From: a virus
Lineage: Duplodnaviria > Heunggongvirae > Uroviricota > Caudoviricetes
Virus record (IMG/VR): IMGVR_UViG_3300017971_007904
Reading direction: 5' to 3' (one strand)
Length of the DNA stretch: 64,000 bases
In this document: piece by piece, positions 10,995 to 54,412 of the stretch
Numbering within the stretch: the first letter of the stretch is position 1
Layout: each line of letters begins with the position of its first letter
The notes under the pieces: generated by a model
Told to the model about the DNA's origin: nothing
The model's database searches: none
Seen by the model: only the letters and a program-made list of their open reading frames with translations
Position numbers and translations under genes: made by a program

Positions 10995-11027
10995 GTCAAC
11001 CATTCCGAATAAGTAAGGAGAAATATC

Positions 11028-15630: not shown

Positions 15631-15694
15631 CCGTTTTTTACTTGCGTTTTTTTTACCTGCGTTTTTTTTACCTGTTCATTGTGACTTGTGTCAC
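15631..15694 (+). repeat. three tandem T-rich ~15-nt repeats (CGTTTTTTT(T)ACYTG) followed by a 14-nt perfect palindrome GTGACTTGTGTCAC
   Basis: Direct reading of the intergenic sequence upstream of prkA; candidate UP-element or operator array. Confidence 0.6.
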
Positions 15695-15735
15695 TTGGAA
15701 ACCAGCAGGATTGACCCGCAATTTTGGAGGTAGCT

Positions 15736-17898
15736 ATGTCCACCGAGAATCCGGCCCCAGCCAGTGCCGTCGACAATGGTCAATCGACCTTTGATAAACT
15801 GGCCAAATCTTTCGACTGTGAAGAGTTCCGCAAGCTCACAACTGAGATGACCTTCTCCGAGTATCTCGAAGAGGCCGAGCGGAACCCCCTGGTGTGCCTC
15901 AGCGCCTACCAGAGAATCTACGACATGGTTCTTTCCGCTGGTGTCGAGCGCATCAAGCGGTTCAACAGAACCTTCACCCGCTACAAGTTCTTCGCCGAAC
16001 ATCCGGAGTTTCCGATCTACGGCCTGGAACAGGCCATCGACGGCTTCGTTGGCAACCTGAAAGGTGCCGCTGGGTACTATGGTACCGAAAAGCGAATCCT
16101 CCTGTTGCACGGCCCGGTCGGCTCGTCGAAGTCCACCGCTGTCCGAGCGCTCAAGCGGGGCTTGGAAGAGTACACCATGACGGATCGGGGTGCCCTCTAT
16201 ACCTTCGATTGGATTGACCTACCCGTCGAAGACGACGACGACGGCCCCGGCCTGGAGCTTCGCAAAATTGCGCCGTGCCCCATGCAGGACGACCCCGTCA
16301 AACTCATCCCGCCCGGCCCGATGCGAAAAGAGATGGAGAAGAAGCTCAACGTCGCATTGGAGAACATGAAACTCAGCGATGACGAAGCCGTCGACGCCGA
16401 GCTTCACCGCATCTTCAAGATTCGCCTGGATGGTGAACTCAACCCGCACGACAAGTTCTTCTACCGTGAGTTGCTTCGTCGCTACAAGGGCGACTGGCGG
16501 AGGGTCATGGAGAAGCACATTCGTGTGCGGCGTGTCGTCCTCTCCGAGTCCGACCGTGTCGGCATCGGTACGTTCAGCCCCAAGGACGAGAAGAACCAGG
16601 ATTCGACGGAGTTGAGTGGCGATGTCAACTATATGAAGTTGGGCCAGTACGGTGTCGACTCCGACCCCCGTGCCTTCAACTTTGATGGTGAGTTCGAGGT
16701 GAGCAACCGAGGGCTCTTGGAGATGATCGAAATGCTCAAACTCAACCAGGAGTTCTTGTACGACCTCCTGGGGGCAGCACAAGAGCGACAGATCAAACCC
16801 AAGAAGTTCCCGCAGGTTGGCATCGACGTGTGCATCCTCGGCCACACCAACGATCCGGAATACCAGAAGCTCCTCAAAAACGAGTGCATGGAGGCGCTGA
16901 AGGATAGGACGATTCGGGTCGACTGGCCCTACGTCCTTCGTTGGGAAGACGAGATCAATGTCCTTCGTCACGACTACAACCAGGAAAGGGTTCGACAGCA
17001 CATCGCTCCCCACACCATCGAGATCGCAGCGCTGTTCGCAATTCTCACCCGGTTGAAGACCGACAAGAACATCAAGCTCGATCCGGTCAAGAAGGCCAAG
17101 CTCTACAACGGCCAGACCGTCCCCGGCTATACGGAAGAAGCCGTCAAGGAGTTGATGGACGCCGAACCGTCCGAGGGTATGGACCAGGGCATCAGCGCCC
17201 GTTACGTCCAGAACAAGCTGTCGAACTCCCTCGTGTCCCACCACGACTACGTCAACCCGTTCATGGTTCTCCACGAACTGAAAGAGGGTCTGAAGACCTA
17301 CTCCCTCGTCGGTGACAACGAAAACCGTCGTGCGTTCTACGAGACGTGCGTCGACCTCGCCAAGAAGGAGTTGGACGAGATTCTCAAGAACGAGGTTCGT
17401 CGGGCTCTCGTTATGGACGATGAAGCCATCAGTCGGATGTTCACCTCGTACTTGGACAACGTCTTCGCCTATATCAACAACGAGAAGGTGAAGAACGAGT
17501 ACACCGGTGAGTTCGAGGAACCGAATGAGCGGTTGATGCGGTCCATCGAAGAGAAGATCGACGTTCCCGATCAGGGTGTCGACGACTTCCGCCGCAGCAT
17601 CGCCGCTTACGTCGGCCACATCACCCGCAACGAGGGCGAGAAGGCCCTCAAGTGGGACAGCAACCCCGATCTTGCAAGGGCACTGGAATTGAAGCTGTTC
17701 GAGGAAACGAAGGACAGCATCAAGCTCAGCAGCCTTACCAAGGTCACCGGCGTCATCGACCCGGATATGCAAGAGAAGATCAACCAGATCAAAACCCGGT
17801 TGGTCAAAAACTACGGTTACGACGAGCGCAGTGCGACCGACGTGTTGAACTACGTCGGCTCCATCTTCGCCCGTGGTGACATGGTCGAACAGCAGTAA
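15736..17898 (+). CDS. prkA: PrkA/YeaG-family serine protein kinase (AAA+ N-terminal domain)
   Basis: Walker A LLLHGPVGSSKST in a PrkA-type AAA domain; 721 aa from the ATG at 15736 (GGAGG SD); the C-terminal half matches the PrkA kinase region. Confidence 0.85.
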   Translation: MSTENPAPASAVDNGQSTFDKLAKSFDCEEFRKLTTEMTFSEYLEEAERNPLVCLSAYQRIYDMVLSAGVERIKRFNRTFTRYKFFAEHPEFPIYGLEQAIDGFVGNLKGAAGYYGTEKRILLLHGPVGSSKSTAVRALKRGLEEYTMTDRGALYTFDWIDLPVEDDDDGPGLELRKIAPCPMQDDPVKLIPPGPMRKEMEKKLNVALENMKLSDDEAVDAELHRIFKIRLDGELNPHDKFFYRELLRRYKGDWRRVMEKHIRVRRVVLSESDRVGIGTFSPKDEKNQDSTELSGDVNYMKLGQYGVDSDPRAFNFDGEFEVSNRGLLEMIEMLKLNQEFLYDLLGAAQERQIKPKKFPQVGIDVCILGHTNDPEYQKLLKNECMEALKDRTIRVDWPYVLRWEDEINVLRHDYNQERVRQHIAPHTIEIAALFAILTRLKTDKNIKLDPVKKAKLYNGQTVPGYTEEAVKELMDAEPSEGMDQGISARYVQNKLSNSLVSHHDYVNPFMVLHELKEGLKTYSLVGDNENRRAFYETCVDLAKKELDEILKNEVRRALVMDDEAISRMFTSYLDNVFAYINNEKVKNEYTGEFEEPNERLMRSIEEKIDVPDQGVDDFRRSIAAYVGHITRNEGEKALKWDSNPDLARALELKLFEETKDSIKLSSLTKVTGVIDPDMQEKINQIKTRLVKNYGYDERSATDVLNYVGSIFARGDMVEQQ

Positions 17899-17923
17899 CG
17901 CTCGCTGGGTTAGGGACGACCAG

Positions 17924-17966
17924 CCCCCACCTGTCGCTGCACGCTGCGACAGGTGGGGGCATTTTA
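17924..17966 (+). terminator. Rho-independent terminator after prkA
   Basis: CCCCCACCTGTCGC / GCGACAGGTGGGGG 14-bp stem followed by ATTTT. Confidence 0.7.
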
Positions 17967-17979
17967 CCCGAGGTTTGTC

Positions 17980-18258
17980 ATGGTCAAGTACGTTAACTTT
18001 CAGGTTCCCGGTTTTGGTTCGGTTGTGTCGGTCGAGTCGGGGCATTCGCTCGTCCGGTTGGCCCAGTTGCCGTTAGAAGATGCTATCGTTGCCCTGAAGG
18101 ATTGGGGTAAGAAGTTTCGCAAAAGGTTGATACAGCAATCAGCAACCCCACGAGACCGTTATACCGAATTGGCCCCTTATAACAACCCTCAAGGTTACAC
18201 GGAGCAATCTGCCCAGGATGTTTTCAATCACGTAGGTCAACTACTGGCCACTTCGTAG
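17980..18258 (+). CDS. small protein resembling the PrkA C-terminal tail
   Basis: ATG with GAGG SD; C-terminus GYTEQSAQDVFNHVGQLLA parallels the PrkA C-terminus GYDERSATDVLNYVGSIFA. Confidence 0.4.
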   Translation: MVKYVNFQVPGFGSVVSVESGHSLVRLAQLPLEDAIVALKDWGKKFRKRLIQQSATPRDRYTELAPYNNPQGYTEQSAQDVFNHVGQLLATS

Positions 18259-18268
18259 GAGGTGCAAC

Positions 18269-19501
18269 ATGCCACGGCGCATACAAGAAGATCATAAGAT
18301 GTTCCGAGACGTAGTGTCCGGAACCACAAGACGGGAGTTGAAGAAGTGGATTAAGAGTGGTCGTATCGTCCGCCGTCGAGGTAAGGACAAGCTTGCCATT
18401 CCGATCCCCCGAATCGACCTCCCGCATTTCATATTCGGTAGGCCGACCGAAGGCATCGGTCGGGGGCCCGGCAAGGATGGTGACAAGGTCGGTGAAGAAC
18501 CTGCCCCAAATCAAGGCGACGGGGCCAGCACCGATCCAGGTGATGCCATCCTGGTCGATGTCGACATGGAACGAATCCTCAAGGAAATGGGCGAGGATTG
18601 GGGCTTGCCGAACATGCTCCCGAAAGAGAACGCCACTTTCGAGGAAGTGAAGATTCGGTACAACAGCTTGTCGAAGATCGGCCCGCCGAGTTTGCTTCAC
18701 AAGCGGAAGACCATTCTTCAAACCCTCAAACGTATGTCGGCCATGGGCCAGTTGGGTCCGGAGAACGCACGGATACTCCCCGGTTACAACGTGCCCGTCA
18801 CGCCGCTGATTCCAATCAAGGATGATATGCGGTTTCGCAAGTGGACGGAGCAGCGCATCCCGTCCAGCAACGCCGTCATCTTCTTCGCCCGTGATATCTC
18901 GGGTTCGATGACGACATACAAGTGCGAGATCGTTTCGGACATGGCGTGGTGGATCGATATGTGGATTCGCCAGTTCTATGAAAAAACTGAGCGGGTCTAC
19001 GTTGTTCACGACACCCGTGCCAAAGAAGTCGACGAAGAACGGTTCTACAAGCTCAGGATGGGTGGTGGAACCATTTGCAGTAGCGCACTGAGGTACATCG
19101 CCAAACAGTTGAAGCATCGCTATCCCCCGGAGAAATGGAACGTGTACGTGTTCTATTTTTCGGACGGCGACAACTGGATGGACGACAACGACAAGTTCGT
19201 CAAGGTTCTCCGTGATGACCTTCCGCCCGACAAGGTCAACTTGTTTGGCATGACGCTGATTCTTCCCTGGTGCCAGGAGGGGCTCAAGGAACACCTGGAT
19301 GCTTTGATCAAGAATGGCAAGCTTGACAACAAGTTCATCCGTACCACCGGCATTGATCGTCCGGACAAGGATAAGAACGACCGGTGGGGTTGGTGGTGGT
19401 GGGACGAAACCATGGATGAAGATGCCCGTAACGATGCCATCCGCAACGCTATCCGAGAGTTGCTGGGGGCTCACGATCAGGCTTCCGAAAAAGCCGCATA
19501 A
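18269..19501 (+). CDS. yeaH: YeaH/YhbH-family DUF444 (vWA-like) protein
   Basis: vWA-like core FFARDISGSM...YVFYFSDGDNW; size and position between prkA and spoVR as in bacterial yeaG-yeaH-ycgB loci. Confidence 0.85.
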   Translation: MPRRIQEDHKMFRDVVSGTTRRELKKWIKSGRIVRRRGKDKLAIPIPRIDLPHFIFGRPTEGIGRGPGKDGDKVGEEPAPNQGDGASTDPGDAILVDVDMERILKEMGEDWGLPNMLPKENATFEEVKIRYNSLSKIGPPSLLHKRKTILQTLKRMSAMGQLGPENARILPGYNVPVTPLIPIKDDMRFRKWTEQRIPSSNAVIFFARDISGSMTTYKCEIVSDMAWWIDMWIRQFYEKTERVYVVHDTRAKEVDEERFYKLRMGGGTICSSALRYIAKQLKHRYPPEKWNVYVFYFSDGDNWMDDNDKFVKVLRDDLPPDKVNLFGMTLILPWCQEGLKEHLDALIKNGKLDNKFIRTTGIDRPDKDKNDRWGWWWWDETMDEDARNDAIRNAIRELLGAHDQASEKAA

Positions 19502-19515
19502 TTGGAGGTGCAACC

Positions 19516-21144
19516 ATGCCCAGTACGATGTTGCACGGGTCGCCGATTTTACTCGACGACAATACCGTGCCCGGCGTGAAGTACACGCCAGAACTTGAGG
19601 AGGTTATTCCAAAGGTCATCCAAGCGTGCTTGGACTTCGGGCTCAAGCCCTACAAGCCTGTTGTCGAGGTCCTCACATACGATGACATTTCGGAGGTGGC
19701 TGCCTACGGGGGCTTCCCCGTGAGGTTCCCCCACTGGTCCTTTGGGATGGAGTATGAAGAACTCAGCAAAGGCTATGAGTTCGGCATGCACAAGATTTAC
19801 GAGATGGTAATCAATACCAATCCGGCATACATCTACTGTCTCGATTCCAACCCCCTGCTCGACCACGTTACGGTCATCGCTCACGCCACAGGCCACAGCG
19901 ATTTCTTCCGCCAGAACGTCTGGTTCGAGCCGACTACCGAGAACGCTCTGAACGAATTGGCCAACCACGGCAGCCGGATTCGGCGGTACATGGACCGCTG
20001 GGGCCGGGAGAAGGTCGGCCAGTTCATCGATTGGGTCCTTTGCGTCGACGATCTGATCGACCTATCCGCATCGTGGCGGTCGAGGCAGGTCAAAGAGCTA
20101 CGAGTCAAGGATAGGCGGGAATACCACTACCCCCGTCGACTCAAGCTGCCGTCGACCGAGGACGAAGAGCACGATTACATGGAACCCTGGATCAACGACG
20201 ATCAGTGGAAGAAGTTCGAGAAGGAACGTCTGGCTCGCCTGGAAGCGGCGCAGACCTTGAACATCTTCAAAGGTAACGACAAGGATGTCCTGGGTTACCT
20301 CGTCAAGAACGCTCCGTTGGTCCCCTGGCAACAGGACATCATCAGTATGCTCTACCGGGAGGCGCAATACTTTGCCCCCCAAGCCTTGACCAAGATGATG
20401 AACGAGGGCTGGGCGTCCTACGTCGATTACAACATCATGGCCCGAAAGCATTGGGCTGGTGGTGGTGGAATCTACGACTACTCCAAGCACAAGATGGGTG
20501 TGCTGGGTGGTAAGTACTCGACCAACCCGTATGCCGTTGGGTTTAAGCTCTTCCTTTACATTGAAGAGCGATGGAACAAGGGCCGCTTCGGAAGGGAATA
20601 CGAGCAGTGCGAAGACATGACCAAGAGGAAGAATTGGGACACGAAGGCCGGTAAGGGCCACGAGAAGGTGTTCGAGGTTCGGGAAATCCACAACGACCTG
20701 ACGGCGATCCAGCAGTTCGTCGACCAGGAGTTCGTGGACCAGTACGAACTCTACGTCTGGGAGAAGTTCCCACGACCGGACGGCGGGTTCGACTACCGGA
20801 TCAAGACACGGGATGCCAAGGAGATCAAGAAAATCCTCATGCAGAGGTACTCCAACGGTGGTCGTCCCGACATCCGCCTTACCGACCCGAACTACGCCAA
20901 CAAGGACATCCTCTTATTGCAACACTTTTGGGAGGGACGAATCCTCGCCCGGCGCTACGCCCAGGCCACCCTCGTCTGCCTCTGGAACCTCTGGAACCAG
21001 GGTGGCGTGGCCGGAAAGCGGCCTGTCGCCGTTGCGACGAAGGACAAGGACGGCGAAGAATTTGTCTACGTCTGCACCGGTACCAAACCGGAGCAGAACC
21101 AGATTCTCCGTCGCAAGAAGTTCGAGGAAGAGTTCGGCTCCTAA
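19516..21144 (+). CDS. spoVR: SpoVR/YcgB-family protein
   Basis: Conserved FPHWSFGMEYEEL, IYEMVINTNPAYIY, HATGHSDFF motifs; 542 aa. Confidence 0.88.
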   Translation: MPSTMLHGSPILLDDNTVPGVKYTPELEEVIPKVIQACLDFGLKPYKPVVEVLTYDDISEVAAYGGFPVRFPHWSFGMEYEELSKGYEFGMHKIYEMVINTNPAYIYCLDSNPLLDHVTVIAHATGHSDFFRQNVWFEPTTENALNELANHGSRIRRYMDRWGREKVGQFIDWVLCVDDLIDLSASWRSRQVKELRVKDRREYHYPRRLKLPSTEDEEHDYMEPWINDDQWKKFEKERLARLEAAQTLNIFKGNDKDVLGYLVKNAPLVPWQQDIISMLYREAQYFAPQALTKMMNEGWASYVDYNIMARKHWAGGGGIYDYSKHKMGVLGGKYSTNPYAVGFKLFLYIEERWNKGRFGREYEQCEDMTKRKNWDTKAGKGHEKVFEVREIHNDLTAIQQFVDQEFVDQYELYVWEKFPRPDGGFDYRIKTRDAKEIKKILMQRYSNGGRPDIRLTDPNYANKDILLLQHFWEGRILARRYAQATLVCLWNLWNQGGVAGKRPVAVATKDKDGEEFVYVCTGTKPEQNQILRRKKFEEEFGS

Positions 21145-22664: not shown

Positions 22665-25193
22665 ATGAAGAAGTGTGAAACGTGTGGCCTAGAGCATTTG
22701 CATCGACACTCAGATTTCTCTCTCCTAGACGGGTTTGCTACCGTCGAGGAGTATGCGGCTTACTCCGAGGCCGCTAATCAGAAGTATCTGTGTATCAGCG
22801 ACCACGGTATGCTTGGTTGCATCCCCCGCCAGATTCGGGCTTGTGACGAGTACAATCTTCAGCCGGTATTTGCCTGTCTTACCGCTGGCCAGCCGATATA
22901 TCTAAAGGATGGAATCAAGCCAATCGAAGAGGTATTGGTTGGTGATCAGGTGTTGACCGATAAGGGTCGTTATCGCAAAGTACTACGAGTGATGAGTCGG
23001 CGGTATCAGGGAAGTCTTTATAAAGTCAAGTTGGCGAACCAAACTGGTAGAGCCTTGATGCAAACGCTAACAGGGGAGCATCCGATTCTCATAAGGAGCT
23101 ATAATGGTCAATATAGCTGGATACCAGTATCGCAAATATTGACAGGCCGTCCCACTACGAAGCGTGGACTTAAAAACCACAATTCGTATGTCTGTTATCC
23201 GCAGAGCAGATCGTCACGTTCTGTAACTTTGAAGATTAGTGACTATCTTCCTGATATTTTTGAATGCGGTGATACCATTGTTCGTACTGGTTGGAAAGGG
23301 GTAGCTGCTTATGAGTGGGAAATTCCACCTGAGTTTGAATTAGATGAGAATTTTGCATATTTCTTGGGCTTATATGTGGCGGAAGGCTCATCGACCACCA
23401 ATAAAAAAGGTTTGCCAAATGGAGCTATGAGGTTGTCATTACATGCCAAAGAGTCTCCTTTGGTGGAAAGGTGCCAACCTGCTGTTGAAGCATTTGGTAT
23501 CAAATTTCATTTGTATCCACGACCTGAGATCAATCGTTTAGATGTTCATTTTGGTTGTCTACCCTTATCTTACATCATTAGGCAACTGTGCGGTATTGGA
23601 TCGCATTGCAAAAAAGTACCCTCCCCAATCTTTCAAAGCTCACTTTCGGTGAAAAAGGCTTTTATGGAAGGTTTGATGGATGGCGATGGCAAAATTAGTG
23701 GTGTGCAAGATGTGTTGAGGGTAGCGTCAAAAGAGTTGGCGTGGGGTGTCAAGAGATTGTTATCCGATTTAGGGTATTGGTCTAATGTTGGGCTTTCTAA
23801 GGATGGTGACAAGGAGTGCTACCATCTCAGTTATTGTCCGGAACGAACATATGCTAGAAGTTTTGTCGAAGATGGCTCTGTAATGTCACCGGTTCAAGAC
23901 ATTGTTGAATTACGTGATCAAGATGTCATGGTATACAATTTAGAGGTAGAAGAGGACAACAGCTATGTCAGTTATTTCGCTGTACATAACTGTGAGTTGT
24001 ACGTCAACAACGCACAACCCATTTGCCGAGACCCAGAAGACTACGTCAAATACGTCGAAGAGAACTCTCCCGAGACGAAGGAGACCCTTCGTAAGTCCTA
24101 TCATCTACTGGCGATAGCTTACACGAATCAAGGTTACAGCAACCTCGTACAGCTTGCGTCGTGGGGCCACATTTATGGTTGGGGTGGCGTACCACGTCGA
24201 CCACGGATCACGCACGAGCAGTTGATGAAGCACAAAGAGGGCTTGATCTTTTCATCGTGTTGCTATCTCTCGGAGATTGGTCAAACCTTTGATCGGTACG
24301 GTCGAGATGCCGCTTTTGCCATGATCGAGAAGTACATGGCCATGTTTGGCGATAACTTCTATCTGGAGTTGATGCTCTTGGACTTCAAGAAGCAAAAGCC
24401 ATACGACCAGTTTCTTATTGAGGCTCATGACCGGTATCACATCCCTCTGAACATCACGCAGGATTGCCACTACTGCAAACAAGAGGATGCTAAGTACCAG
24501 CAGTATATGCTGATGATACGCACGAAGCACACGGTGGCTGACATTGAGGCGGCTATCGAACAGGGTGAGGCAAGGGAAGGTTTCTTTGAGTTACAGGATC
24601 AGCAACTTTGGATGAAAACTGAAGAGGAGTTGAACGAAAAGTGGAACGAAGATTACACCGACGCAATCCCGTATGAACTCTTTTGTCAGGCTAAGCATAA
24701 CACGGTCGAGATATGTCGGAAAGCCGAAGGAGTTGAGATCGACCGTACCATCAAGTTGCCCGAAATCGACGAGGCTGACGAGAAGCTCTGGGAGGGGCTT
24801 TGTAAAGGTTTCAAATGGCGAGGTTTGGAGGGTAAGGCTGACTATATGCAACGCTTGAGAGAGGAGTATGAGCTTATCTGCCGCAAAGACTTCTCCAGTT
24901 ACTTTCTCTTGACAAAGATGTTTACGGATGAGGGTCGTCGAGCGTGCCCCAAACTGATTGGTTGGGGAACTGGCGAAGAGGCAATTAGCCCTGGCCGAGG
25001 GTCGGGTGTGAGCTTCCTATCCAATTACGTCTTGGGTATTACGGATGTTGATCCAATCCGCCACGACTTAGTCCCAGAAAGGTTCCTCAGTGATGCACGG
25101 GGTGGTCGTCAACTGAAGCTACAGTTTGATAGTGAGCCGATTAGTACGGCTCATAGTCATCCGGAATCTCCCAATCATCCGGAATCGGAATGA
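22665..25193 (+). CDS. dnaE: DNA polymerase III alpha subunit (DnaE), N-terminal fragment (PHP domain through the GPGRGSG region), interrupted by an intein
   Basis: PHP motif LHRHSDFSLLDG; after the intein, SYFLLTKMF...SPGRGSGVSFLSNYVLGITDVDPIRHDLVPERFLSDAR aligns with E. coli DnaE ~residues 300-400; the last ~30 aa are non-homologous. Confidence 0.85.
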   Translation: MKKCETCGLEHLHRHSDFSLLDGFATVEEYAAYSEAANQKYLCISDHGMLGCIPRQIRACDEYNLQPVFACLTAGQPIYLKDGIKPIEEVLVGDQVLTDKGRYRKVLRVMSRRYQGSLYKVKLANQTGRALMQTLTGEHPILIRSYNGQYSWIPVSQILTGRPTTKRGLKNHNSYVCYPQSRSSRSVTLKISDYLPDIFECGDTIVRTGWKGVAAYEWEIPPEFELDENFAYFLGLYVAEGSSTTNKKGLPNGAMRLSLHAKESPLVERCQPAVEAFGIKFHLYPRPEINRLDVHFGCLPLSYIIRQLCGIGSHCKKVPSPIFQSSLSVKKAFMEGLMDGDGKISGVQDVLRVASKELAWGVKRLLSDLGYWSNVGLSKDGDKECYHLSYCPERTYARSFVEDGSVMSPVQDIVELRDQDVMVYNLEVEEDNSYVSYFAVHNCELYVNNAQPICRDPEDYVKYVEENSPETKETLRKSYHLLAIAYTNQGYSNLVQLASWGHIYGWGGVPRRPRITHEQLMKHKEGLIFSSCCYLSEIGQTFDRYGRDAAFAMIEKYMAMFGDNFYLELMLLDFKKQKPYDQFLIEAHDRYHIPLNITQDCHYCKQEDAKYQQYMLMIRTKHTVADIEAAIEQGEAREGFFELQDQQLWMKTEEELNEKWNEDYTDAIPYELFCQAKHNTVEICRKAEGVEIDRTIKLPEIDEADEKLWEGLCKGFKWRGLEGKADYMQRLREEYELICRKDFSSYFLLTKMFTDEGRRACPKLIGWGTGEEAISPGRGSGVSFLSNYVLGITDVDPIRHDLVPERFLSDARGGRQLKLQFDSEPISTAHSHPESPNHPESE
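22875..23990 (+). mobile_element. intein (372 aa) with LAGLIDADG homing-endonuclease domain inserted in the DnaE PHP domain
   Basis: N-splice block CLTAGQPIYL, block B TLTGEHPIL, LAGLIDADG-like FAYFLGLYVAEGS and FMEGLMDGDGKIS, C-terminal VYNLEVEE...FAVHN followed by extein Cys (CELYV). Confidence 0.8.
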
Positions 25194-27150: not shown

Positions 27151-27582
27151 ATGACAAGATTCAAATCGTGGAACGAGTACGCTACGGAACGTGCGGCAAA
27201 CGAAGGTAAGGAGCCAACAAACGAAAGTAAGGACACCAAGAAGGAGTTCATCCATCTTTCTAAGACGCCTGAAGAGCAGAATGCTACGTGCTCTGGTGAG
27301 CCCCTTGATCTGACTTACCGTGAGGAAGACGAGTATAAGAAGATGTTAGACTTCCTTCGAGGTAAGAAGAATGTCCCCGATCCTCCGAAACCACCCGCCG
27401 AAGCACCGAAAGGTTGGTTCATCGCCGATGAGCAGAGCCGTGGTTTCTGGTATGACAATGGTTGGACTCAAGACACTAGTTTCCTCAATGAAGCGGTTAT
27501 CGATTCAGAGCGAGCAGCACACGCTTTAGCCCAGGTTGTGGGCGGCGTTGTCATCCCCGCTGAAGAGGTAATGGGTAACTGA
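27151..27582 (+). CDS. hypothetical protein
   Basis: ATG at 27151 with AGGTGG SD; 143 aa. Confidence 0.5.
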   Translation: MTRFKSWNEYATERAANEGKEPTNESKDTKKEFIHLSKTPEEQNATCSGEPLDLTYREEDEYKKMLDFLRGKKNVPDPPKPPAEAPKGWFIADEQSRGFWYDNGWTQDTSFLNEAVIDSERAAHALAQVVGGVVIPAEEVMGN

Positions 27583-27635
27583 CATTGACTCAGTTTTCTC
27601 CATAAATTACAATACGTCTACTCCATTGGGAGTAA

Positions 27636-27985
27636 GGGGGCGACAGGTATCGATTGGCTATGTCGATAACGGGTTGCCTGCCGTGGTTGGTCAGCAGGCC
27701 ACGTAAAAAGCCGACCACTAAACTTTAAGTGCCGAACCGGTACGAATGGCTGCTTAAGAGTAGCCCAGGCCAAGGAAGCCCGCCAGCGGCGTCCGGAAGC
27801 CTGCCGAAAATGTTGGCTGGATTCAGGTCATTGTCGACTACGCCTGGGTTGAGATCAGTTGTCATGACTAGCCGTTAGAACTTTGTTCGCCGAGGTCGAA
27901 TCGGTAAAACCAAAAGACGAACTATTGCAGGTAGACGCCTTTTTGAGACTAGTGCAACACAGCGGTTCGAGTCCGCTCGCCTCCA
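27636..27985 (+). ncRNA. ssrA: tmRNA (ssrA)
   Basis: 5' GGGGGCG pairs with 3' CGCCUCC as a 7-bp acceptor stem carrying the G3:U70 alanine identity pair; T-arm AGCGG-UUCGAGU-CCGCU; internal GGUUGG...CGUAAAAAGCCG closely matches E. coli tmRNA upstream of the tag ORF; candidate tag reading frame GCC GAA CCG GUA CGA AUG GCU GCU UAA (AEPVRMAA) at 27730-27756; discriminator A; CCA not fully encoded. Confidence 0.8.
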
Positions 27986-27994
27986 CTTTCTACA

Positions 27995-28040
27995 CCACCA
28001 CCCTTCCAGCCTAGTGGCTGGAAGGGTGGTGGCCCCTTTC
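27995..28040 (+). terminator. Rho-independent terminator after the tmRNA
   Basis: CCACCACCCTTCCAGCC / GGCTGGAAGGGTGGTGG 17-bp stem, 4-nt loop, then CCCCTTTCT. Confidence 0.7.
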
Positions 28041-28053
28041 TGAGGACGAACCG

Positions 28054-28260
28054 ATGAAAAGTCTTCCCTACCTTATCATGTTGTTCGTTATTTTTCCACT
28101 TGGCATCTGGCATCATTTTTGCAATAAAGTGGTGGTAACAGGCCCGGCAACTCCCCACGAGTTCATGATTGCGAATTACAGCCAACACCCCGTCTTCACA
28201 GGGGTCTTTTTCGGAGTCTTTGTACTAATACTCGTCTTGATGGCGATTACTTGGAAGTAA
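28054..28260 (+). CDS. small hydrophobic membrane protein
   Basis: 68 aa with two predicted TM helices. Confidence 0.4.
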   Translation: MKSLPYLIMLFVIFPLGIWHHFCNKVVVTGPATPHEFMIANYSQHPVFTGVFFGVFVLILVLMAITWK

Positions 28261-28283
28261 CCCTTTTATCAGGAGGTATCACG

Positions 28284-28418
28284 ATGAAACGGCTTTCAAT
28301 GTTAATCTATGATGTTTATCCGTGTGAAGGTTATCTTGCCGCCGACCCTCCTGACAACCCAGAGATTTCGGCACCGGACTCCATCGACTTATCAGAAGTT
28401 GGAACGGAACGAGAATGA
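28284..28418 (+). CDS. 44-aa upstream ORF translationally coupled to the GluRS-like gene (possible leader peptide)
   Basis: Strong SD AGGAGGT 6 nt upstream; its stop TGA overlaps the ATG of the next gene (gaATGa); its first 15 nt ATGAAACGGCTTTCA nearly duplicate the start of the next gene (ATGAAAACGGCTTTCA). Confidence 0.4.
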   Translation: MKRLSMLIYDVYPCEGYLAADPPDNPEISAPDSIDLSEVGTERE

Positions 28419-29743
28419 AAACGGCTTTCATTTACCACGCCTCCTGGGTGCCCGGATTGCATCTTGGAGCAGCCCGACTTGCGCTGTTGAACTACCTTTA
28501 TGCCAAAAAGCATGGTGGTTCGTGTGTTCTTATCTGTAATGATATCGCATCGCCGCCCAAGCCGTTCCACGACAGCCTCCCAATGTTGTTGGAGTGGCTG
28601 AACATCCGCTGGGGGGAAGGCCCATACCACAACGTCCACTTCAGGGGGAAGTATCGTGAGGTGGTAGAGCGTCTGCTCAGTTGCAACTTGGCCTATTACG
28701 ATTACGCCACACCGGAGGAGATTCACAGCGAGCAGCAAGCTGCTCGTAAGTCGAAGGAGCCATTCCTTTACAGTCGCTTGTATGAAGGTCACACGCCCAC
28801 TGACTGCCGGAACTGGGAGGCAGAAGGCCGGAAAGCTGTTATTAGGCTTCGGATGCCTCGGACGGATGATGAGACCTACCGTTACGAAGAGGCGATTATG
28901 GATGATATGATCTACGACCGCAAGATTACCGATCTGGCGACGGAAAATGACTACGTCATTCAGCGAACTGACGGCAGTTACACAACATATCTCACGCAAG
29001 CGGTTGATTACGATCTCCACAACATCGATGTTGTGTTCAGGGACATCAATGATCGGGCTTCGTTAGCCGCCGAAACCTTCATTGCCAGATGGGCGGGCTT
29101 GAAGCAGCCTAAGTTTGGCCATATTCCTTACTTTGCTGGGCCTGTTGGCTCTCATCGGTTCTCACCCAAGCACGATAAGGATTATGCCCGCCACGTCGAG
29201 TTTTGCGAGATGCTCGATCTGGTCATGGAGATTGACGCCAAGATTCCAACTTACTCACAATGGGGCGTTTTTCATCCGTGTTATGTGCGATTTTACGAGA
29301 AGGTTGGATTCCTCCCAGAGGCGGTTTCTCACTACCTGTATCAGTCGCTCCTGAAAACGTCTGTAGAATGCGATTCTAGGCCCCTCACAGCCTCTCAGAT
29401 GGCCTCTAAGCTCGAATTGGACTCAGTAGACCCTGGTATAAAACAATTCGATACAGAGGCTCTGGAAGCCTGCCAGAGGGAGGCTATGAAAGGCTGCGGA
29501 TTAGGGCGTAAAGCTAAGCTCATTCACTCATTGGCTCGCTCGATCCGCCCCTTCGATTACAAGCGTGATTTTGGAGGCGTGCAATCAGAAGCGGTTCAAG
29601 CCTTTAAGGATTTTGCTGAAAGCCAGGACCTCTTCTTGATAGGAGAGGCGGCTCTTCGCCCAAATGATCTTCCATGCGGCTTTGCACCTGAGCCTACGCT
29701 TGAAGAGGACGCTTTTACCAACGAAGGCTGTCCACACAGTTGA
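28415..29743 (+). CDS. class-I aminoacyl-tRNA synthetase catalytic-domain protein, glutamyl-tRNA synthetase / GluQ-RS-like
   Basis: N-terminal WVPGLHLGAARLALLNYLYAKKHGGSCVLICNDI resembles the GluRS HIGH region (PSPTGxLHxGxARTALxNWLxAR..GGxFxLRIEDTD); 442 aa, no recognisable anticodon-binding domain. Confidence 0.65.
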   Translation: MKTAFIYHASWVPGLHLGAARLALLNYLYAKKHGGSCVLICNDIASPPKPFHDSLPMLLEWLNIRWGEGPYHNVHFRGKYREVVERLLSCNLAYYDYATPEEIHSEQQAARKSKEPFLYSRLYEGHTPTDCRNWEAEGRKAVIRLRMPRTDDETYRYEEAIMDDMIYDRKITDLATENDYVIQRTDGSYTTYLTQAVDYDLHNIDVVFRDINDRASLAAETFIARWAGLKQPKFGHIPYFAGPVGSHRFSPKHDKDYARHVEFCEMLDLVMEIDAKIPTYSQWGVFHPCYVRFYEKVGFLPEAVSHYLYQSLLKTSVECDSRPLTASQMASKLELDSVDPGIKQFDTEALEACQREAMKGCGLGRKAKLIHSLARSIRPFDYKRDFGGVQSEAVQAFKDFAESQDLFLIGEAALRPNDLPCGFAPEPTLEEDAFTNEGCPHS

Positions 29744-29780
29744 ATCTTGCTCGTGAATACGCTAAATAGGGCGAGCCACG

Positions 29781-30482
29781 ATGTCTGATAACATCCACAG
29801 ACCGAAAGATGTGAGAGCAGCCATCTTCGATTTGGATGGTGTGATCATTTCGTCGAAAGTGGCCGAGTACGAATCGTGGCGTAGGGTCTTCCGAGTCTTC
29901 AACTCTAACTTGACACTCCAACAGTGGGTCAAGATCATCGACAGTCCAGACGGTGTATTCGATCCCGCAACCGTCTTGAGGCAAAAATGCAAGATAGAGT
30001 TGCTTGCCAACGGCCAAATCGAGACCATGAGGACGAACCTGTATGAGTCGCTGCGCCGGGAGCTAGTAGCATTGCCGGGGATCGTGGGGCTCATCAAAGA
30101 ATGCACATCAATGGATTTGATGCTTGGTGTGGCCTCCAACGGAGACCACACCAAGGTAATGTACCACTTAGGTCGACTCAAGTTGCTTCGTTACTTCCAT
30201 GTGATCAAGTGTCGGGACGATGTTCGGAACAAGAAGCCCGCCCCGGATATCTATATGGCCACCGTGCGGGACTTGGGCGTGAATCCTGGGACCGTAGTTG
30301 TCTTTGAGGATTCCCCACCAGGGATCACTGCCGCCAAAGCGGCTGGCCTGTATTGCATTGGGTGCCCGAACAAGATCACGAAGTATCTCGACCTTTCTGA
30401 AGCGGACGAGATATGCAAGTCCTTCAAACGTTTCTCTATGCAAGAGTTCATTAACCCTGCCAACAAACTGACGAGGTTGTAG
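29781..30482 (+). CDS. HAD-superfamily hydrolase, beta-phosphoglucomutase/phosphatase-like
   Basis: Motif I AAIFDLDGVII; motif II GVASNG; motif III/IV KKPAPDIY...FEDSPPGITAAKAAG. Confidence 0.8.
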   Translation: MSDNIHRPKDVRAAIFDLDGVIISSKVAEYESWRRVFRVFNSNLTLQQWVKIIDSPDGVFDPATVLRQKCKIELLANGQIETMRTNLYESLRRELVALPGIVGLIKECTSMDLMLGVASNGDHTKVMYHLGRLKLLRYFHVIKCRDDVRNKKPAPDIYMATVRDLGVNPGTVVVFEDSPPGITAAKAAGLYCIGCPNKITKYLDLSEADEICKSFKRFSMQEFINPANKLTRL

Positions 30483-30507
30483 ATGAAACAGGAGGTTATC
30501 AAAAAGC

Positions 30508-31440
30508 TCATGGGGTGAGTAGACATCGGCGAATAGCTTCTTTTACCTTGACGGTAGGTTGAAAGCCCAGGTCTCTTTCGGCTTTTGATATGTCTGGAAC
30601 CCTAACCAACACATCGTCTTTGTATTCCTTCATCGTTTCAAACTTGAGTTCCTCTTTGCCTTGGTAGATCAACCTCGCTAGGTCTTTCATTGTGATGGGT
30701 TCTGGATTCCCGATGTTGTAGGTTTCATTGTTGGTTTTGTCTTCAAATGACCACTCACCAATGATGTTAGCAACATCCTCGATCCAGGTGAAACACCTTA
30801 TCTGGTTACCGTCACCAATGATGGGCAATGGGTTTCTACTTTCATTCGCTATCTTCTGAATGAAGTCGGCGAACACATGACTTAAACCCTGTTCTTTCCC
30901 GGCAATTTCATGTGGGCTTATTATGTTGAAAGGTCTCCAGATGACGTACCGGATGTCATATTGTTGAGCGAAAGCCCTACACATTCTTTCGCCGACCACT
31001 TTGGACAAGCCGTAGTCTGTGGAGGGTGTCGGTGACTCAAATGCATCTTCTTCTTTACTTGGCTGGTTATGGCACCTTTCGTAGACCATGGAAGAACTGA
31101 TGTATGCTATCTTCTTGACATGATGCTTCACCATAGCCCACAGAATGTTTTGGTGTAGAGCGACATCTTTCGATAGAATATCTGCTGCGTGCTTGTGGAA
31201 TCCGCCCACACCGTAGCACAGCGCCGCTGCCTGTACTACGCCGTCGACTCCCGTCATCACCTCATCCACGAACTTGCTATCGGTAAGATCGCCTCGATGA
31301 AAGGTATAGGTTCTAGTTCTATTGATTTCACCGTATCGAACAAAGTTATCCACCCCTAGAACTTCATGGCCGTTCTTCATCAAGACTGGGATCACGAATT
31401 GCATCAATGACCCTTCTGATCCCGTAACAAGTATCTTCAC
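30508..31440 (-). CDS. NAD-dependent epimerase/dehydratase (extended SDR) family protein
   Basis: N-terminal Rossmann VTGSEGSLMQFV; catalytic YGLSK (YxxxK); 310 aa. Confidence 0.75.
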   Translation of the reverse strand: MKILVTGSEGSLMQFVIPVLMKNGHEVLGVDNFVRYGEINRTRTYTFHRGDLTDSKFVDEVMTGVDGVVQAAALCYGVGGFHKHAADILSKDVALHQNILWAMVKHHVKKIAYISSSMVYERCHNQPSKEEDAFESPTPSTDYGLSKVVGERMCRAFAQQYDIRYVIWRPFNIISPHEIAGKEQGLSHVFADFIQKIANESRNPLPIIGDGNQIRCFTWIEDVANIIGEWSFEDKTNNETYNIGNPEPITMKDLARLIYQGKEELKFETMKEYKDDVLVRVPDISKAERDLGFQPTVKVKEAIRRCLLTP

Positions 31441-32234
31441 ATCTCCCTCATTCCGTCAAAAACAGTTGTCTCGAACTGTTCGTTATCGCTCAAGACAGCT
31501 TGAAAGAGTCTTCCCTTTGTCTGTAGTTCGTTTGCCAGTTGACTGATGGTATGAGTATCTTTCGGTAGACACACGCCGCCGAAACCCTTGAAGTTATCGT
31601 TGCAGTCTAAGTAACTATCTGTAATATGGCTTCTATTCACAGCGGCGTTTTTAACCGTAGTGTAATCAACATTCATCTTCTCGCATATTTCGTAGAAGTT
31701 GTTTGCGAATGTCACTAGGGTGGCGTTGTAGACATTGATGAAGTATTTCACCAATTCGGCCTCTGTGGGAAGAAGTCGGACTGTTTTCTTCGGATACTTC
31801 CCATGAGCGGATTTAATGATCTCAAAGACACAGGAAGTCTTTGTTCCGATTACGCATAGGTCATGATTCTCCATAAAGTCAGATATAGCACATCGCTCTC
31901 TTAGGAACTCGGGAACATAGCATAGAATCCTACTTGGGTATTCGTGCTGTAGCCTTTCAGTAAAGCCCGGTTCTACAGTTGATTTGATTGCTATTATCCC
32001 AGCGTAGTCGATTGCGTCTAATTCGTTTATTACACTTTCGACAATGCTAACATCGCACTTGCCAGTGCCCAGTGAGGGTGTGGGTACGCAAATGAATGCG
32101 ATTTCCGTATTTTCCAGGTCTCGAATTGAGGTCTCGCATTTCGTATCGTGAACGAAGACTCTGTGCCCTATCTTCTCAAAGCCTTCCTTTATGGCTGAGC
32201 CTACAACACCTAAACCGATTATTCCTATCTTCAT
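31437..32234 (-). CDS. UDP-glucose/GDP-mannose dehydrogenase-family protein, short form
   Basis: Start taken at MKIGIIGLGVVGSA (GxGxxG); IKSTVEPGFTERL and YVPEFLRERCAISDF...DLCVIG match the UDPGDH N-terminal and central domains; no C-terminal UDP-binding domain (265 aa). Confidence 0.65.
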   Translation of the reverse strand: MKIGIIGLGVVGSAIKEGFEKIGHRVFVHDTKCETSIRDLENTEIAFICVPTPSLGTGKCDVSIVESVINELDAIDYAGIIAIKSTVEPGFTERLQHEYPSRILCYVPEFLRERCAISDFMENHDLCVIGTKTSCVFEIIKSAHGKYPKKTVRLLPTEAELVKYFINVYNATLVTFANNFYEICEKMNVDYTTVKNAAVNRSHITDSYLDCNDNFKGFGGVCLPKDTHTISQLANELQTKGRLFQAVLSDNEQFETTVFDGMREM

Positions 32235-32299
32235 GCCATAAGAGAGGGTTTGTTGAGAAAATGCTAAGGTTTTTGGCCCGATAAGCCGATACATGAAGT

Positions 32300-34936
32300 A
32301 TGACGAAGAAGGAACTGCTGAAGAAGTTATGCCTTGGGCGAATGAAGAAACTAGGCATACTTGATGCTGCGCACCTTGCTCGTCTCAAGAATGAACTTAT
32401 CGAGATCGAAGTTCAGGACCAATACGAGTATTTTCTAGGCCATTGTAAGAGTGGAACCCGCTGGGAACACAACGACCACAATCTGTTGGTTCCTTATCTC
32501 CTCAATCTATGTCCCGAGTTTGATATCACGAAGGAAACCGCCTTTACGATGGGTGAGTTTCCGGACATCGATGTGGACTATCTGGCTGTCGTGCGTGAGT
32601 ATCTGATGAACGAGTGGGCTCCAAAAAAGTTCGGAGCCGACAAGGTTTGCCATATTGGCACCTATTCCACGTACAACCTCAAACAGTCGCTAATCGACAT
32701 GGCTCGCATCTTTGGCGAGAGTAGAACTGAAGTGATGAATGTCACGACCCAGTTTGGTGCGAAGGATGACGAGGGTGATGCTTTGACCTGGGAAAAAGCC
32801 CTAACCATCTATCCGTCCTTTCGAGAGTACGTCAAGAACCACCCCGACGTGGCGGATGCCGCAAAGAAGATTTGTGGTCGGAATCGCAATATGGGCCAGC
32901 ATGCTGGTGGTTTCATTGTGTCTCGAACGCCCCTGACTGGTTTTGTACCATTGGTCCGAAACAAGAAGGATAACCAGCTTATGACGGCGTGGCCCGAGGG
33001 GCAGTCGGCGCAGGAGCTACAGGCGGTGGGCTTGGTAAAGCTGGACTTACTTTCGAGCAAGATGTCGACCCAGATCAAGGACTGTATTGGTTTGATTCGC
33101 CAGCGTCACGGCGAGGTGAAGATTTCGGCAAGAGAGGGGGGCTCGAATTGGTCGGATCATTCGTACTTGGACGATCCGAAGTGTATGGAAATGGCCAATA
33201 AGGGTGACTTACGATTCATCTTCCAATTTGATTCAGATGGTATCCGTCGTCTCGTTAGGACTGGTGGCGTCGATGGGTTTCAGGACTTAGAGGCATATTC
33301 GGCGTTATATCGTCCTGGGACCCTGAGCATGGGCATGCATGACGTGTACTGCAACCGGAAGAAAGGTAAGGAGGTATTCGACATACACCCTGTCTTGGAG
33401 CCGTATTTGCAAAAGACGTATGGTGTAGCAGTCTTCCAAGAGAGCGTGATGAAGGTTCTAAACAAGGCGGGCGGAATCCCGCTGCGGGATTGTATGGCGG
33501 TAATTAAGGCCATCAGCAAGAAGAAAATCGAGAAGTTTGCGAAGTACAAAGAGCTATTCATCCGGAACAGCCAGAGGATTCTGGGGATCAAGAAGGAGGC
33601 TGCCGGGCAGTTTTGGGAGCAGATTGAGGCGTTTGCTGGTTACGGGTTTAACAAGGCTCACTCTTGCGTCTATACGCATGTAAGCGCCCGACAGCTATAT
33701 CTGAAGTGTTACTATCCACTGGAGTACTATTGTAGTTATCTGAATCACATCAAAGGCGCAGACGCAAAGATGCGTGATTGTGTGCGGGATGCTGCTCGAC
33801 ACAATGTAACGGTTAACTCAATCGACATCAACAAGTCGGAAGAGCATTTTCAGATTGCGGATGACGATGAAATCTACTTCGGATTTGCCAACGTCAAGCA
33901 TGTGGGCGAGAAAGTGGCTACGAGGTTAGTAGAAGAGCGACGTAACGGCCCCTTTACGGACTTCCAGAACTTCCTAGATCGATTTGGGACGGATGCCAAG
34001 ATCATCCAGGCCCTTGTTTCTCTGGGGGCCTTTGAGGGTGATCCGGTTTGTCTCTACGAGTATTACGAGTACTACAAGGATTATCACACGAAGCAGACGC
34101 AGCGACGGAAGAGGTATGAGGTAGCACTTAAGAGGTACGAAGATCAATTCCATGAATTTGCCGGTCACAATTTCGCCTTTGGTACTGAGGAGCAGATTAC
34201 CTTCGCAATCGATAATATCGATGATGAGGAGGCTAAGGCAAAGCTTCGTCGCCTGCGTGGGAACTATCGCCGTACCTTGACGAACAATACAAACAACGAG
34301 CGGAACGATACAGGCCCTGTATCATTTGAAAATTTCGTTTCGCCAAAGAAATCTGCTATCAAAGAGGACCTTCGCAAGATTCTACAAGACAAGGCAGTAG
34401 CCGAAATTGAGTATTACGGTTTCACATGGTCCAGCCCGCTGGAAAGTTGCCCTAATCTCGAAGGGGACACGTTTGCGGAATACCGGTCTGCCCGTCTAGC
34501 TTTGGGCCCCGTGGAGGGAGCTATACAGGATGTGCGGGAGGTGAAGAGCCGAAAGGGTAATAAGTACTACGTTGTACAGCTTCTGGATGCTAACTGGGAA
34601 CTTGGGTTCGTCAATGTCTGGACGGCAGACATGGCTGAGTTTACCGATAAGTTGAAACCTGGGAATATTGTCCGCATGCGGCTTCAGGCTCCCAATCCTA
34701 AGTTTGCTTCTGAGCGGTACAGTCTGGAAAGCTACCCTCGGAAGCGACGGGGTATCACACGAGAACAGTCAAACGCTCGTGTTATGATACTACGTTCTCC
34801 GGATCAAGAGGTAAAGGTCGTGACCAATGAGCCCCCAATTACTCTTGATAAGGAAAGGGAAAAGAAATTGGAGGTAAAAGAGGATGTCGAAACAGCCGAA
34901 CTGTACCAAGACCTCGACAAACTCCTCGGCTTATGA
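32300..34936 (+). CDS. dnaE: DNA polymerase III alpha subunit (DnaE), C-terminal fragment (palm/fingers/thumb core)
   Basis: PDIDVDY, GQHAGGFIVSRTPL and FNKAHSCVYTHVSARQLYLKCYYPLEYY catalytic-core motifs; its N-terminal ~80 aa re-encode the helical region (ARLKNELIEIEVQDQYEYFL) also present at the end of the N-fragment. Confidence 0.88.
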   Translation: MTKKELLKKLCLGRMKKLGILDAAHLARLKNELIEIEVQDQYEYFLGHCKSGTRWEHNDHNLLVPYLLNLCPEFDITKETAFTMGEFPDIDVDYLAVVREYLMNEWAPKKFGADKVCHIGTYSTYNLKQSLIDMARIFGESRTEVMNVTTQFGAKDDEGDALTWEKALTIYPSFREYVKNHPDVADAAKKICGRNRNMGQHAGGFIVSRTPLTGFVPLVRNKKDNQLMTAWPEGQSAQELQAVGLVKLDLLSSKMSTQIKDCIGLIRQRHGEVKISAREGGSNWSDHSYLDDPKCMEMANKGDLRFIFQFDSDGIRRLVRTGGVDGFQDLEAYSALYRPGTLSMGMHDVYCNRKKGKEVFDIHPVLEPYLQKTYGVAVFQESVMKVLNKAGGIPLRDCMAVIKAISKKKIEKFAKYKELFIRNSQRILGIKKEAAGQFWEQIEAFAGYGFNKAHSCVYTHVSARQLYLKCYYPLEYYCSYLNHIKGADAKMRDCVRDAARHNVTVNSIDINKSEEHFQIADDDEIYFGFANVKHVGEKVATRLVEERRNGPFTDFQNFLDRFGTDAKIIQALVSLGAFEGDPVCLYEYYEYYKDYHTKQTQRRKRYEVALKRYEDQFHEFAGHNFAFGTEEQITFAIDNIDDEEAKAKLRRLRGNYRRTLTNNTNNERNDTGPVSFENFVSPKKSAIKEDLRKILQDKAVAEIEYYGFTWSSPLESCPNLEGDTFAEYRSARLALGPVEGAIQDVREVKSRKGNKYYVVQLLDANWELGFVNVWTADMAEFTDKLKPGNIVRMRLQAPNPKFASERYSLESYPRKRRGITREQSNARVMILRSPDQEVKVVTNEPPITLDKEREKKLEVKEDVETAELYQDLDKLLGL

Positions 34937-53633: not shown

Positions 53634-53641
53634 GAGGTTGC

Positions 53642-54410: not shown

Positions 54411-54412
54411 AC

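Follow-up and report, generated by a model that had tools for sequence, protein, structure and literature searches.

The window analysed here is a stretch of 64,000 nucleotides from a virus of the class Caudoviricetes (IMG/VR record IMGVR_UViG_3300017971_007904), in which a gene for a 442-aa protein derived from glutamyl-tRNA synthetase (GluRS) directly follows a 44-codon open reading frame (ORF) on the same strand. An initial annotation, made from the letters of the sequence without database searches, had placed the protein behind a short ORF driven by a Shine-Dalgarno (SD) sequence, the two ORFs having near-identical first 15 nt and the upstream stop overlapping the ATG of the synthetase-like gene. 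These points were confirmed in the sequence, including the coordinates and the AGGAGG motif. In particular, the two starts agreed over 15-16 nt, with an exact 12-mer (AAACGGCTTTCA) in common, and the upstream TGA (28416-28418) overlapped the main ATG (28415-28417), giving gaATGa. The reading favoured here, to which a probability of about 0.6 is given, is that the protein represents a family of pseudo-GluRS whose active site has been rewritten and whose anticodon reader is missing, and that its gene is coupled by termination-reinitiation to the upstream ORF. The positions of the features are collected in Table 1.

Domain content, active site and descent of the 442-aa protein

The GluRS-type catalytic domain with a HIGH motif, as initially annotated, was recovered by a hidden Markov model (HMM) search against Pfam, in which PF00749 (tRNA-synt_1c) matched residues 15-239 with 89.7 bits, and the HIGH equivalent was located at H16-L-G-A19. 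The annotated lack of an anticodon-binding domain also held, as PF19269, the model for domains 4 and 5, was not detected in the window protein by the Pfam search and the corresponding region was truncated. The nearest NCBIfam model was TIGR00464 (bacterial GluRS), with 119 bits against a cut-off of 289.95, and the protein scored far below every curated cut-off of that collection. Bacterial GluRS came on top in the sequence search of the PDB, and ranks 1-42 of a Foldseek search against the PDB were bacterial GluRS chains (E-values down to 1e-26, TM-score 0.74). The AlphaFold (AF2) model had a mean confidence score (pLDDT) of 85 and was confident to approximately residue 377, with a short helix at 397-407; low-confidence segments extended from 381 to the C-terminus, pLDDT being <50 at 381-390, 410-415, 418-434 and 438-442. 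The resulting architecture comprises a Rossmann core, the acceptor-binding domain 2, domain 3, a remnant of domain 4 and a disordered acidic tail. No functional lead was obtained from PADLOC or PHROGs.

A total of 12 phage proteins form the family, namely the window protein, P0002, P0121-P0126, P0128, P0130, P0131 and the protein of locus L014, with lengths of 400-491 aa and identities to the window protein of 25-45%. Among 5.8 billion proteins there was a single close match, P0002 (44% identity), after which came GluRS of Gemmataceae, Pirellulales and other Planctomycetota (30-35% identity over ~80% of the query). An exhaustive profile search of 1.84 billion representatives added nine full-length members (402-491 aa, 198-380 bits), and the best ordinary GluRS reached ~202 bits in it, exceeding the weakest family members. 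Furthermore, scanning IMG/VR with a profile of 11 sequences added one locus, L014. Searches with a single sequence, with two sequences or with hand-made degenerate patterns found no members in IMG/VR or in JGI metagenome contigs, and deposited phage genomes held no family member, only ordinary gltX genes at ~24% identity. This small phage family is previously undescribed, and it appears confined to one clade of huge phages.

An insertion of ~33 aa after the KMSKS position was common to the family and to Planctomycetota GluRS, being absent from the other bacterial GluRS aligned. In a neighbour-joining tree, 93 of 100 bootstraps supported monophyly of the family and 78 of 100 its grouping with Planctomycetota GluRS, the branches being long. 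These comparisons show that the family descends from a GluRS of the Planctomycetota type, which a clade of T4-like huge phages captured; the carrier phages probably infect Planctomycetota. The N-terminus M-K-T-A-F was conserved in the 12 members. At the other end, an EGCPN-type terminus was found in 6 of 11 members (the window protein, P0002, P0122, P0124, P0126 and P0128), whose acidic tails follow the pattern EGCPN(F/V/C/GG) and recall the docking tails of SSB-type proteins.

The active sites of 11 family members were compared with ordinary GluRS in the numbering of the T. thermophilus enzyme, the reference being identical to PDB 1j09. GluRSs strictly conserve Arg5, Arg205 and Asp195, on which the specific recognition of glutamate mainly depends (PMC2978374); all the ordinary GluRS aligned retained them, together with Tyr187, HIGH, the KMSKS lysine and YQSER. 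In the family, Arg5 was replaced by I, T or H in every member (retained in 0/11), Asp195 by Tyr in ten and by Cys in one (likewise 0/11), and Arg205 was lost in 10/11, being kept by the window protein alone, which has Ile6, Arg209 and Tyr199 at the positions equivalent to Arg5, Arg205 and Asp195. Moreover, Tyr187 and the second KMSKS lysine were lost in 11/11, the YQSER motif was replaced, and the HIGH histidine, present in the window protein, was Asn or Thr in three members. The initial annotation had proposed to look for KMSKS by alignment; the window protein reads RFSPK there, the second lysine being absent. With respect to Planctomycetota GluRS, family identity was highest in domain 2 (0.41) and lowest in the Rossmann halves (0.27-0.29), whereas among real GluRS the Rossmann halves were the most conserved parts (0.82-0.83). 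As for domain 5 (88 residues), a mean of ~21 residues could be aligned in the family. The changes were partly consistent from member to member, involving Asp195 to Tyr (10/11), Glu84 to His (9/11) and the SW and PAQ motifs, and the site therefore seems to have been remodelled under selection rather than to have merely decayed.

The window protein is thus most likely a non-canonical RNA-binding paralogue of GluRS, and probably a non-aminoacylating one. It would no longer make Glu-tRNA or Glu-AMP, and it would instead bind the acceptor arm of a tRNA or a tRNA-like RNA, or use an aminoacyl-tRNA. Several points weigh against this proposal. A basic residue follows the lost lysine in 9/11 members (R-F-S-x-K/R), the HIGH histidine is kept in 8/11, and family-specific positions (W11, H75, Y199, D210 and PAQ) are conserved, a pattern that could indicate a new pocket and not a dead one. 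Furthermore, the loss of canonical residues does not prove that all catalysis is lost, and RNA binding is suggested solely by the relative conservation of domain 2.

Two enzymatic alternatives have to be weighed at this point. The initial annotation had leaned towards GluQ-RS. An enzyme of this type would activate glutamate independently of tRNA and glutamylate queuosine-34 of tRNA-Asp or a similar base, and the GluRS-type Rossmann domain with a truncated C-terminus, together with weak matches to GluQ-RS models (28-78 bits), would fit it. However, every one of these models lay far under its cut-off (250-453 bits), GluQ-RS structures took ranks 43-44, after the 42 GluRS chains, and the family nested with Planctomycetota GluRS and has their insertion. 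Nor does the protein consist of a catalytic domain of ~300 aa only, since 442 aa were found, with domain 3 and the helices of domain 4 retained and modelled to ~377-407. GluQ-RS keeps the residues for recognition and activation of glutamate (PMC3542578), whereas Arg5, Asp195, Tyr187 and the KMSKS lysine are lost in all 11 members compared. A GluQ-RS-type enzyme is considered extremely improbable. The other alternative is an enzyme with new chemistry, which would have given up ATP activation and use a charged aminoacyl-tRNA (e.g. Glu-tRNA), or would activate a different, less polar substrate in its remodelled pocket. There is a precedent in the cyclodipeptide synthases (CDPSs), class-I synthetase-like enzymes without HIGH and KMSKS that take aminoacyl-tRNAs as substrates (PMC3105412), and both the retention of domain 2 and the pocket substitutions conserved in the family, which suggest selection on a new site, are in its favour. 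On the other hand, no acceptor substrate or partner gene was evident, the neighbouring genes differ among the phages, and Arg205, Glu41 and the HIGH positions are not constant among the members, contrary to what a single fixed catalytic centre would predict; new chemistry, although unlikely, is a serious rival. A decoy function towards HipA-type kinases, which phosphorylate the serine of KMSKS, was also considered and set aside, S/T being present in only 8/11 members, which lends it weak support.

The upstream ORF and the repeated start

Within the 64-kb window, the exact 12-mer occurred only at 28287 and 28419, and the local alignment score of the repeat was equalled in 3 of 2000 shuffles. 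The downstream copy is regarded as the original because it encodes the family-conserved M-K-T-A-F, and by this comparison the upstream copy is a duplicate one base shorter, the first five codons of the upstream ORF being a frame-shifted copy of the main gene's start. Nevertheless, some observations qualify the repeat. Direct 12-mer repeats within 200 nt were found at five loci of the window against 0.6 expected, from which it follows that the unusual part is the position of both copies on start codons and not repetition itself. In addition, the duplication model is based on 16 nt only, and the alignment stretched to a shared upstream TTATCAG was not significant (equalled in 42 of 2000 shuffles). 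A longer tandem duplication was rejected, as no significant similarity was found outside the 16-nt core. The 'duplication remnant' of the initial annotation is still a reasonable reading of the repeated start.

Regarding translation, the SD of the upstream ORF was as strong as annotated, its duplex with the anti-SD sequence having an energy of -11.6 kcal/mol versus -3.9 kcal/mol for the main start. The main AUG lies in a predicted hairpin formed by ATGAAA and TTTCAT (-4.9 kcal/mol), which was present in both the minimum free energy and the centroid folds of 28262-28470. The locus thus combines the two marks of a coupled pair, the stop/start overlap and a weak downstream ribosome-binding site, and seven other 4-nt ATGA overlaps between gene pairs were found in the window. 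Among the relatives, L008/L009 have an unrelated 42-codon ORF that runs out of the end of a TnpB insertion and whose stop likewise falls in an ATGA at the family gene, and in L005 a 99-aa ORF ends on this gene in TAATG. The family-gene start is closely preceded by SD-like purine tracts (AGGAG, GAGG) in L010 and L011, and L006 and L014 have no overlapping upstream ORF, only weak SD-like tracts. Against coupling stand the weakness of the hairpin at the main start and a minimal GAG(A) purine tract that does precede this start.

The arrangement may go back to a local duplication or insertion by which the first ~16 nt of the gene were copied and ~131 nt came to lie between the gene and the strong SD, and the open frame ending on the start codon would have been retained because it restores ribosome delivery. 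Ribosomes would then start at 28284, read 44 codons, opening the hairpin around the main AUG on the way, and after termination at the UGA that overlaps it begin again at 28415, which is ordinary termination-reinitiation coupling and not attenuation by amino-acid sensing. The upstream ORF probably only delivers ribosomes to the pseudo-GluRS gene; its most plausible reading is a lineage-specific and otherwise ordinary coupling arrangement, a by-product of local duplication or insertion.

Conservation of the upstream ORF in related phages, on which the initial annotation had made its proposal depend, was not found: no homologous peptide or DNA was detected upstream of the family gene at nine related loci, and protein and DNA comparisons of the upstream ORF with the region upstream of P0002 remained at chance level. 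The 44-aa peptide had no match in Pfam, NCBIfam, PHROG or PADLOC. Its body had no second copy in the window, and the idea of a repeated or mobile element was dropped. Three other assemblies of the same phage call the ORF as a gene and were 100% identical over window 27600-29800, showing no variation. The interval between the family gene and the transfer-messenger RNA (tmRNA) gene upstream of it was occupied by different ORFs, namely 68-aa and 44-aa ORFs in the window, a 101-aa ORF in L001, a 99-aa ORF in L005, three ORFs in L007, the TnpB element in L008/L009, a 182-aa ORF in L010 and almost nothing in L011, and an all-versus-all comparison of the ORFs in this interval at eight loci revealed no homology. 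The comparisons therefore show an upstream ORF specific to this phage, situated in a hypervariable islet just downstream of the tmRNA. The TnpB (OrfB_IS605 / Cas12f-like) element inserted there spans 6692-7843 in L008 and 4394-5545 in L009.

Besides coupling, two roles of the peptide itself were weighed. The initial annotation had compared the arrangement to leader-peptide or attenuator control, according to which stalling at Glu codons, in the terminal GAA-CGA-GAA-TGA, would sense the supply of Glu-tRNA. In its favour are the strong SD and the two GAA codons among the final three sense codons, placed right at the main start. However, five Glu in 44 codons are no enrichment over the phage background (P = 0.23), no terminator-like site was found in 27400-30600, the fold of 28262-28470 was no better than that of shuffled sequences (z = -0.29), and the stop overlaps the start, therefore leaving no room for terminator/antiterminator structures. 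As the ORF is moreover not conserved in the nine relatives and the downstream protein is unlikely to use glutamate, a regulatory leader is very unlikely. A functional small acidic protein, with the ATGA overlap reflecting normal operon packing, is easier to defend, although still rather unlikely: the ORF is predicted by gene callers in every assembly, the G+C contents at its first and second codon positions (0.59 and 0.41) match the coding pattern, and ATGA overlaps are common in this phage, but no homologue appeared in any search made, the G+C content at third codon positions (GC3) is atypical (0.41 vs. a phage coding average of 0.60), and the first five codons copy the neighbour's start out of frame. 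The low GC3 is also a point against the favoured reading, under which the peptide itself may or may not matter. Finally, mimicry of the tRNA-Glu anticodon loop by the start motif, which contains CUUUCA, was discarded, the motif not being exposed in a loop of the predicted folds and the protein lacking an anticodon-reading domain.

Phage context and the neighbouring tmRNA

The identical protein was found on contigs of up to 297,696 bp, and the window belongs to a huge phage; in the relative L001, genes for a T4-type Gp23 capsid protein and a prohead protease lie in the same neighbourhood. In all the long loci, the family gene is situated between the halves of a split DNA polymerase III alpha subunit (DnaE). 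These halves are ~7 kb apart in the window, the break falling inside the DNA_pol3_alpha domain (profile positions ~98/100), and the split with a tmRNA between the halves is conserved in the clade (L001, L007-L011 and L014-L016). In L008, a group I intron (Rfam, 111 bits) occupies 874-1106, just upstream of the gene for the N-terminal half of DnaE.

A same-strand tmRNA was found upstream of the family gene in eight of the nine phages with enough upstream sequence (the window, L001, L005, L007, L008/L009, L010, L011 and L014), 63 nt to 1.7 kb away. Those of L001, L008 and L010 were detected with Rfam but not with ARAGORN. Every related long locus had a homologous tmRNA, and the tags ended in MAA (AEPVRMAA, DEAPLRMAA and ANAPRYAMAA). 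The ends inspected keep G3-U70 and A73, with only C74 of the CCA end encoded, and charging with alanine by alanyl-tRNA synthetase (AlaRS) is therefore expected. In the window, a promoter-like TTGACT-17-TACAAT lies at 27585-27613, just upstream of the tmRNA. The GC-rich hairpin on its other side (Table 1) is likely a processing or termination structure, or it may be a site for recombination bordering the variable islet.

Table 1. Features of the DnaE-tmRNA-pseudo-GluRS region, in window coordinates
Feature	Position	Strand	Evidence or remark
DnaE N-terminal half, with Hint + LAGLIDADG intein in the PHP region	22665-25193		
Phage tmRNA, tag AEPVRMAA	27636-27988	+	ARAGORN; Rfam RF00023, 95.6 bits; 427 nt upstream of pseudo-GluRS gene
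Perfect 17-bp GC-rich hairpin without U-tract, directly 3' of tmRNA	27995-28032	+	-42 kcal/mol, z -7.1
68-aa hydrophobic ORF, filling the variable islet together with the 44-codon ORF	28054-28260	+	ORF list
AGGAGG Shine-Dalgarno sequence of upstream ORF	28271-28276	+	Ends 7 nt before the ATG at 28284
Upstream ORF, 44 codons + TGA, peptide MKRLSMLIYDVYPCEGYLAADPPDNPEISAPDSIDLSEVGTERE	28284-28418	+	ORF list
Repeated start, copy 1, ATGAAACGGCTTTCA	28284-28298	+	Repeat alignment
Predicted 8-bp hairpin, arms GAAUGAAA / UUUCAUUU, 5-nt loop, sequestering the main AUG	28413-28433	+	Predicted fold
Main ORF, 442-aa GluRS-derived protein (pseudo-GluRS)	28415-29743	+	ORF list, PF00749, TIGR00464, fold
Repeated start, copy 2, ATGAAAACGGCTTTCA	28415-28430	+	Repeat alignment; encodes family-conserved M-K-T-A-F
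~33-aa insertion after KMSKS position, common only to Planctomycetota GluRS	29195-29293	+	Alignment columns 311-343
Low-confidence acidic C-terminal tail, aa 381-442, ends EGCPHS, replaces anticodon-binding domain 5	29555-29740	+	AF2 pLDDT
DnaE C-terminal half	32300-34936		

The recurrent neighbourhood raises a more specific role, in which the family would serve the phage tmRNA, or a tRNA acceptor arm, as a dedicated partner; a GluRS without anticodon reader would suit an RNA in which an acceptor/T-arm is present and an anticodon arm is missing. Such a partner may bind, protect, deliver or chemically alter the tRNA-like domain of the tmRNA, or use an aminoacyl-tRNA as CDPSs do, and the acidic EGCPN tail may be a docking site for a further factor of phage or host. 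This role is considered unlikely, and the neighbourhood has exceptions. For the divergent member L013, no tmRNA was present within 970 nt and the neighbours differ, and L015 and L016, two relatives in the clade with ~50% identical DnaE C-terminal halves, have a tmRNA between the halves (L015 533-896; L016 6564-6919, inverted, on the minus strand) and no family gene there (HMM search, E ≤10). Furthermore, intrinsic terminators separate the tmRNA from the family gene in L011 and L014. Adjacency was accordingly rejected as proof of function, and by reason of these exceptions and terminators the linkage, striking as it is, may be inherited synteny. A role as an alternative charging enzyme for the tmRNA was also rejected, as the phage tmRNAs examined keep the alanine identity set and charging by AlaRS is simpler.

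Outside this region, genes for a PrkA-like serine kinase, a DUF444 (YeaH-like) protein and a SpoVR-like protein stand in a row at window 15724-21144 (also in L011, 1-2179), corresponding to the bacterial yeaG-yeaH-ycgB stress module carried on a phage, with a G+C content of 0.54-0.57, above that of the surroundings. The motif TGCGTTTTTTTTACCTG is repeated at a 15-nt offset at 15643-15677, just upstream of the PrkA-like gene, and 9477-12620 codes for two large SPFH/Band-7 proteins next to each other (505 and 530 aa). Dense host-like cargo was found at 1152-2012, 3755-5322, 29781-32294, 48271-49893, 52740-55501, 57461-58198 and 62435-63373, comprising a PAS-domain response regulator, a dCMP deaminase, an HD protein, an HAD hydrolase, two UDP-glucose/GDP-mannose dehydrogenase-like genes, epimerases/dehydratases, a TPP enzyme, a full-length DnaJ and a GT2 glycosyltransferase, and the window contains no tRNA genes. 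Moreover, a 246-kb contig of the same phage (L002) is 100% identical from window 26918 onward and unrelated upstream, its positions 1-1503 encoding a TIR_2-domain protein in place of the N-terminal part of a 409-aa ORF, and a third contig begins exactly at 26920. The junction at 26918 is either a strain-level rearrangement or an assembly breakpoint.

Significance and comparison with known systems

Synthetase paralogues working outside aminoacylation, such as HisZ, PoxA, GluQ-RS and the CDPSs, have repeatedly revealed new biochemistry. The family described here has been kept long enough to reach 25-45% identity while its catalytic residues changed in a consistent pattern, and it is this family that constitutes the interesting result, the upstream ORF alone being ordinary. 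It also indicates that Pfam-based calls of a 'phage-encoded tRNA synthetase' can hide non-synthetases, which bears on claims about the way in which huge phages take over translation. The recurrent place beside a phage tmRNA is a concrete, testable lead; if the partner role were true, the family would provide the first synthetase-derived factor for tmRNA or tRNA-like RNA and a new phage route into ribosome rescue.

With bacterial GluRS, discriminating or non-discriminating (TIGR00464; PDB 2cfo and 1j09), the family shares the fold (E-value 1e-26, TM-score 0.74) and the order of domains 1-4. In contrast to these enzymes, it lacks the Arg5/Asp195/Arg205 network, Tyr187, YQSER and the KMSKS lysine, its HIGH histidine is not universal, domain 5 and PF19269 are absent, a new acidic, EGCPN-ended tail is present, and it is encoded by phages and not by cells. 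The closest relatives are the GluRS of Planctomycetota (Gemmataceae/Pirellulales), which have in common with the family the ~33-aa insertion and an EAEGRKxVVRLKMPR block in domain 2, the family being sister to this group or nested within it in the neighbour-joining tree.

GluQ-RS/YadB (TIGR03838; PDB 1nzj and 4a91) is likewise a GluRS paralogue without anticodon recognition, but it has ~300 aa and the catalytic domain only, with the glutamate-binding and ATP motifs kept (PMC3542578), whereas the family has 400-491 aa, domains 3-4 and those residues lost. Its origin, from Planctomycetota GluRS, is also independent of that of GluQ-RS. The catalytic fold of aminoacyl-tRNA synthetases has likewise been re-used in CDPSs, HisZ and PoxA/EpmA, whose parents were TyrRS/TrpRS, HisRS and LysRS, respectively, and to our knowledge none of them is GluRS-derived, phage-encoded or tmRNA-linked. 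Among these, CDPSs lack HIGH and KMSKS and still bind aminoacyl-tRNA (PMC3105412).

As regards phages, the synthetase genes of huge phages were reported as synthetases confirmed by TIGRFAM models and presumed to charge tRNA (Al-Shayeb et al. 2020, PMC7162821). The gene in the window is similarly a host-derived synthetase gene in a phage of >200 kb with a tmRNA, although its product fails the TIGRFAM cut-off and is without the catalytic residues. Finally, the arrangement of the two ORFs resembles the ATGA termination-reinitiation pairs of phage and bacterial operons, with the same stop/start overlap, a weak downstream SD and the AUG in a hairpin. The coupling, here predicted from sequence, differs from that of the usual ATGA pairs in that the upstream cistron starts with a frame-shifted copy of the downstream start.

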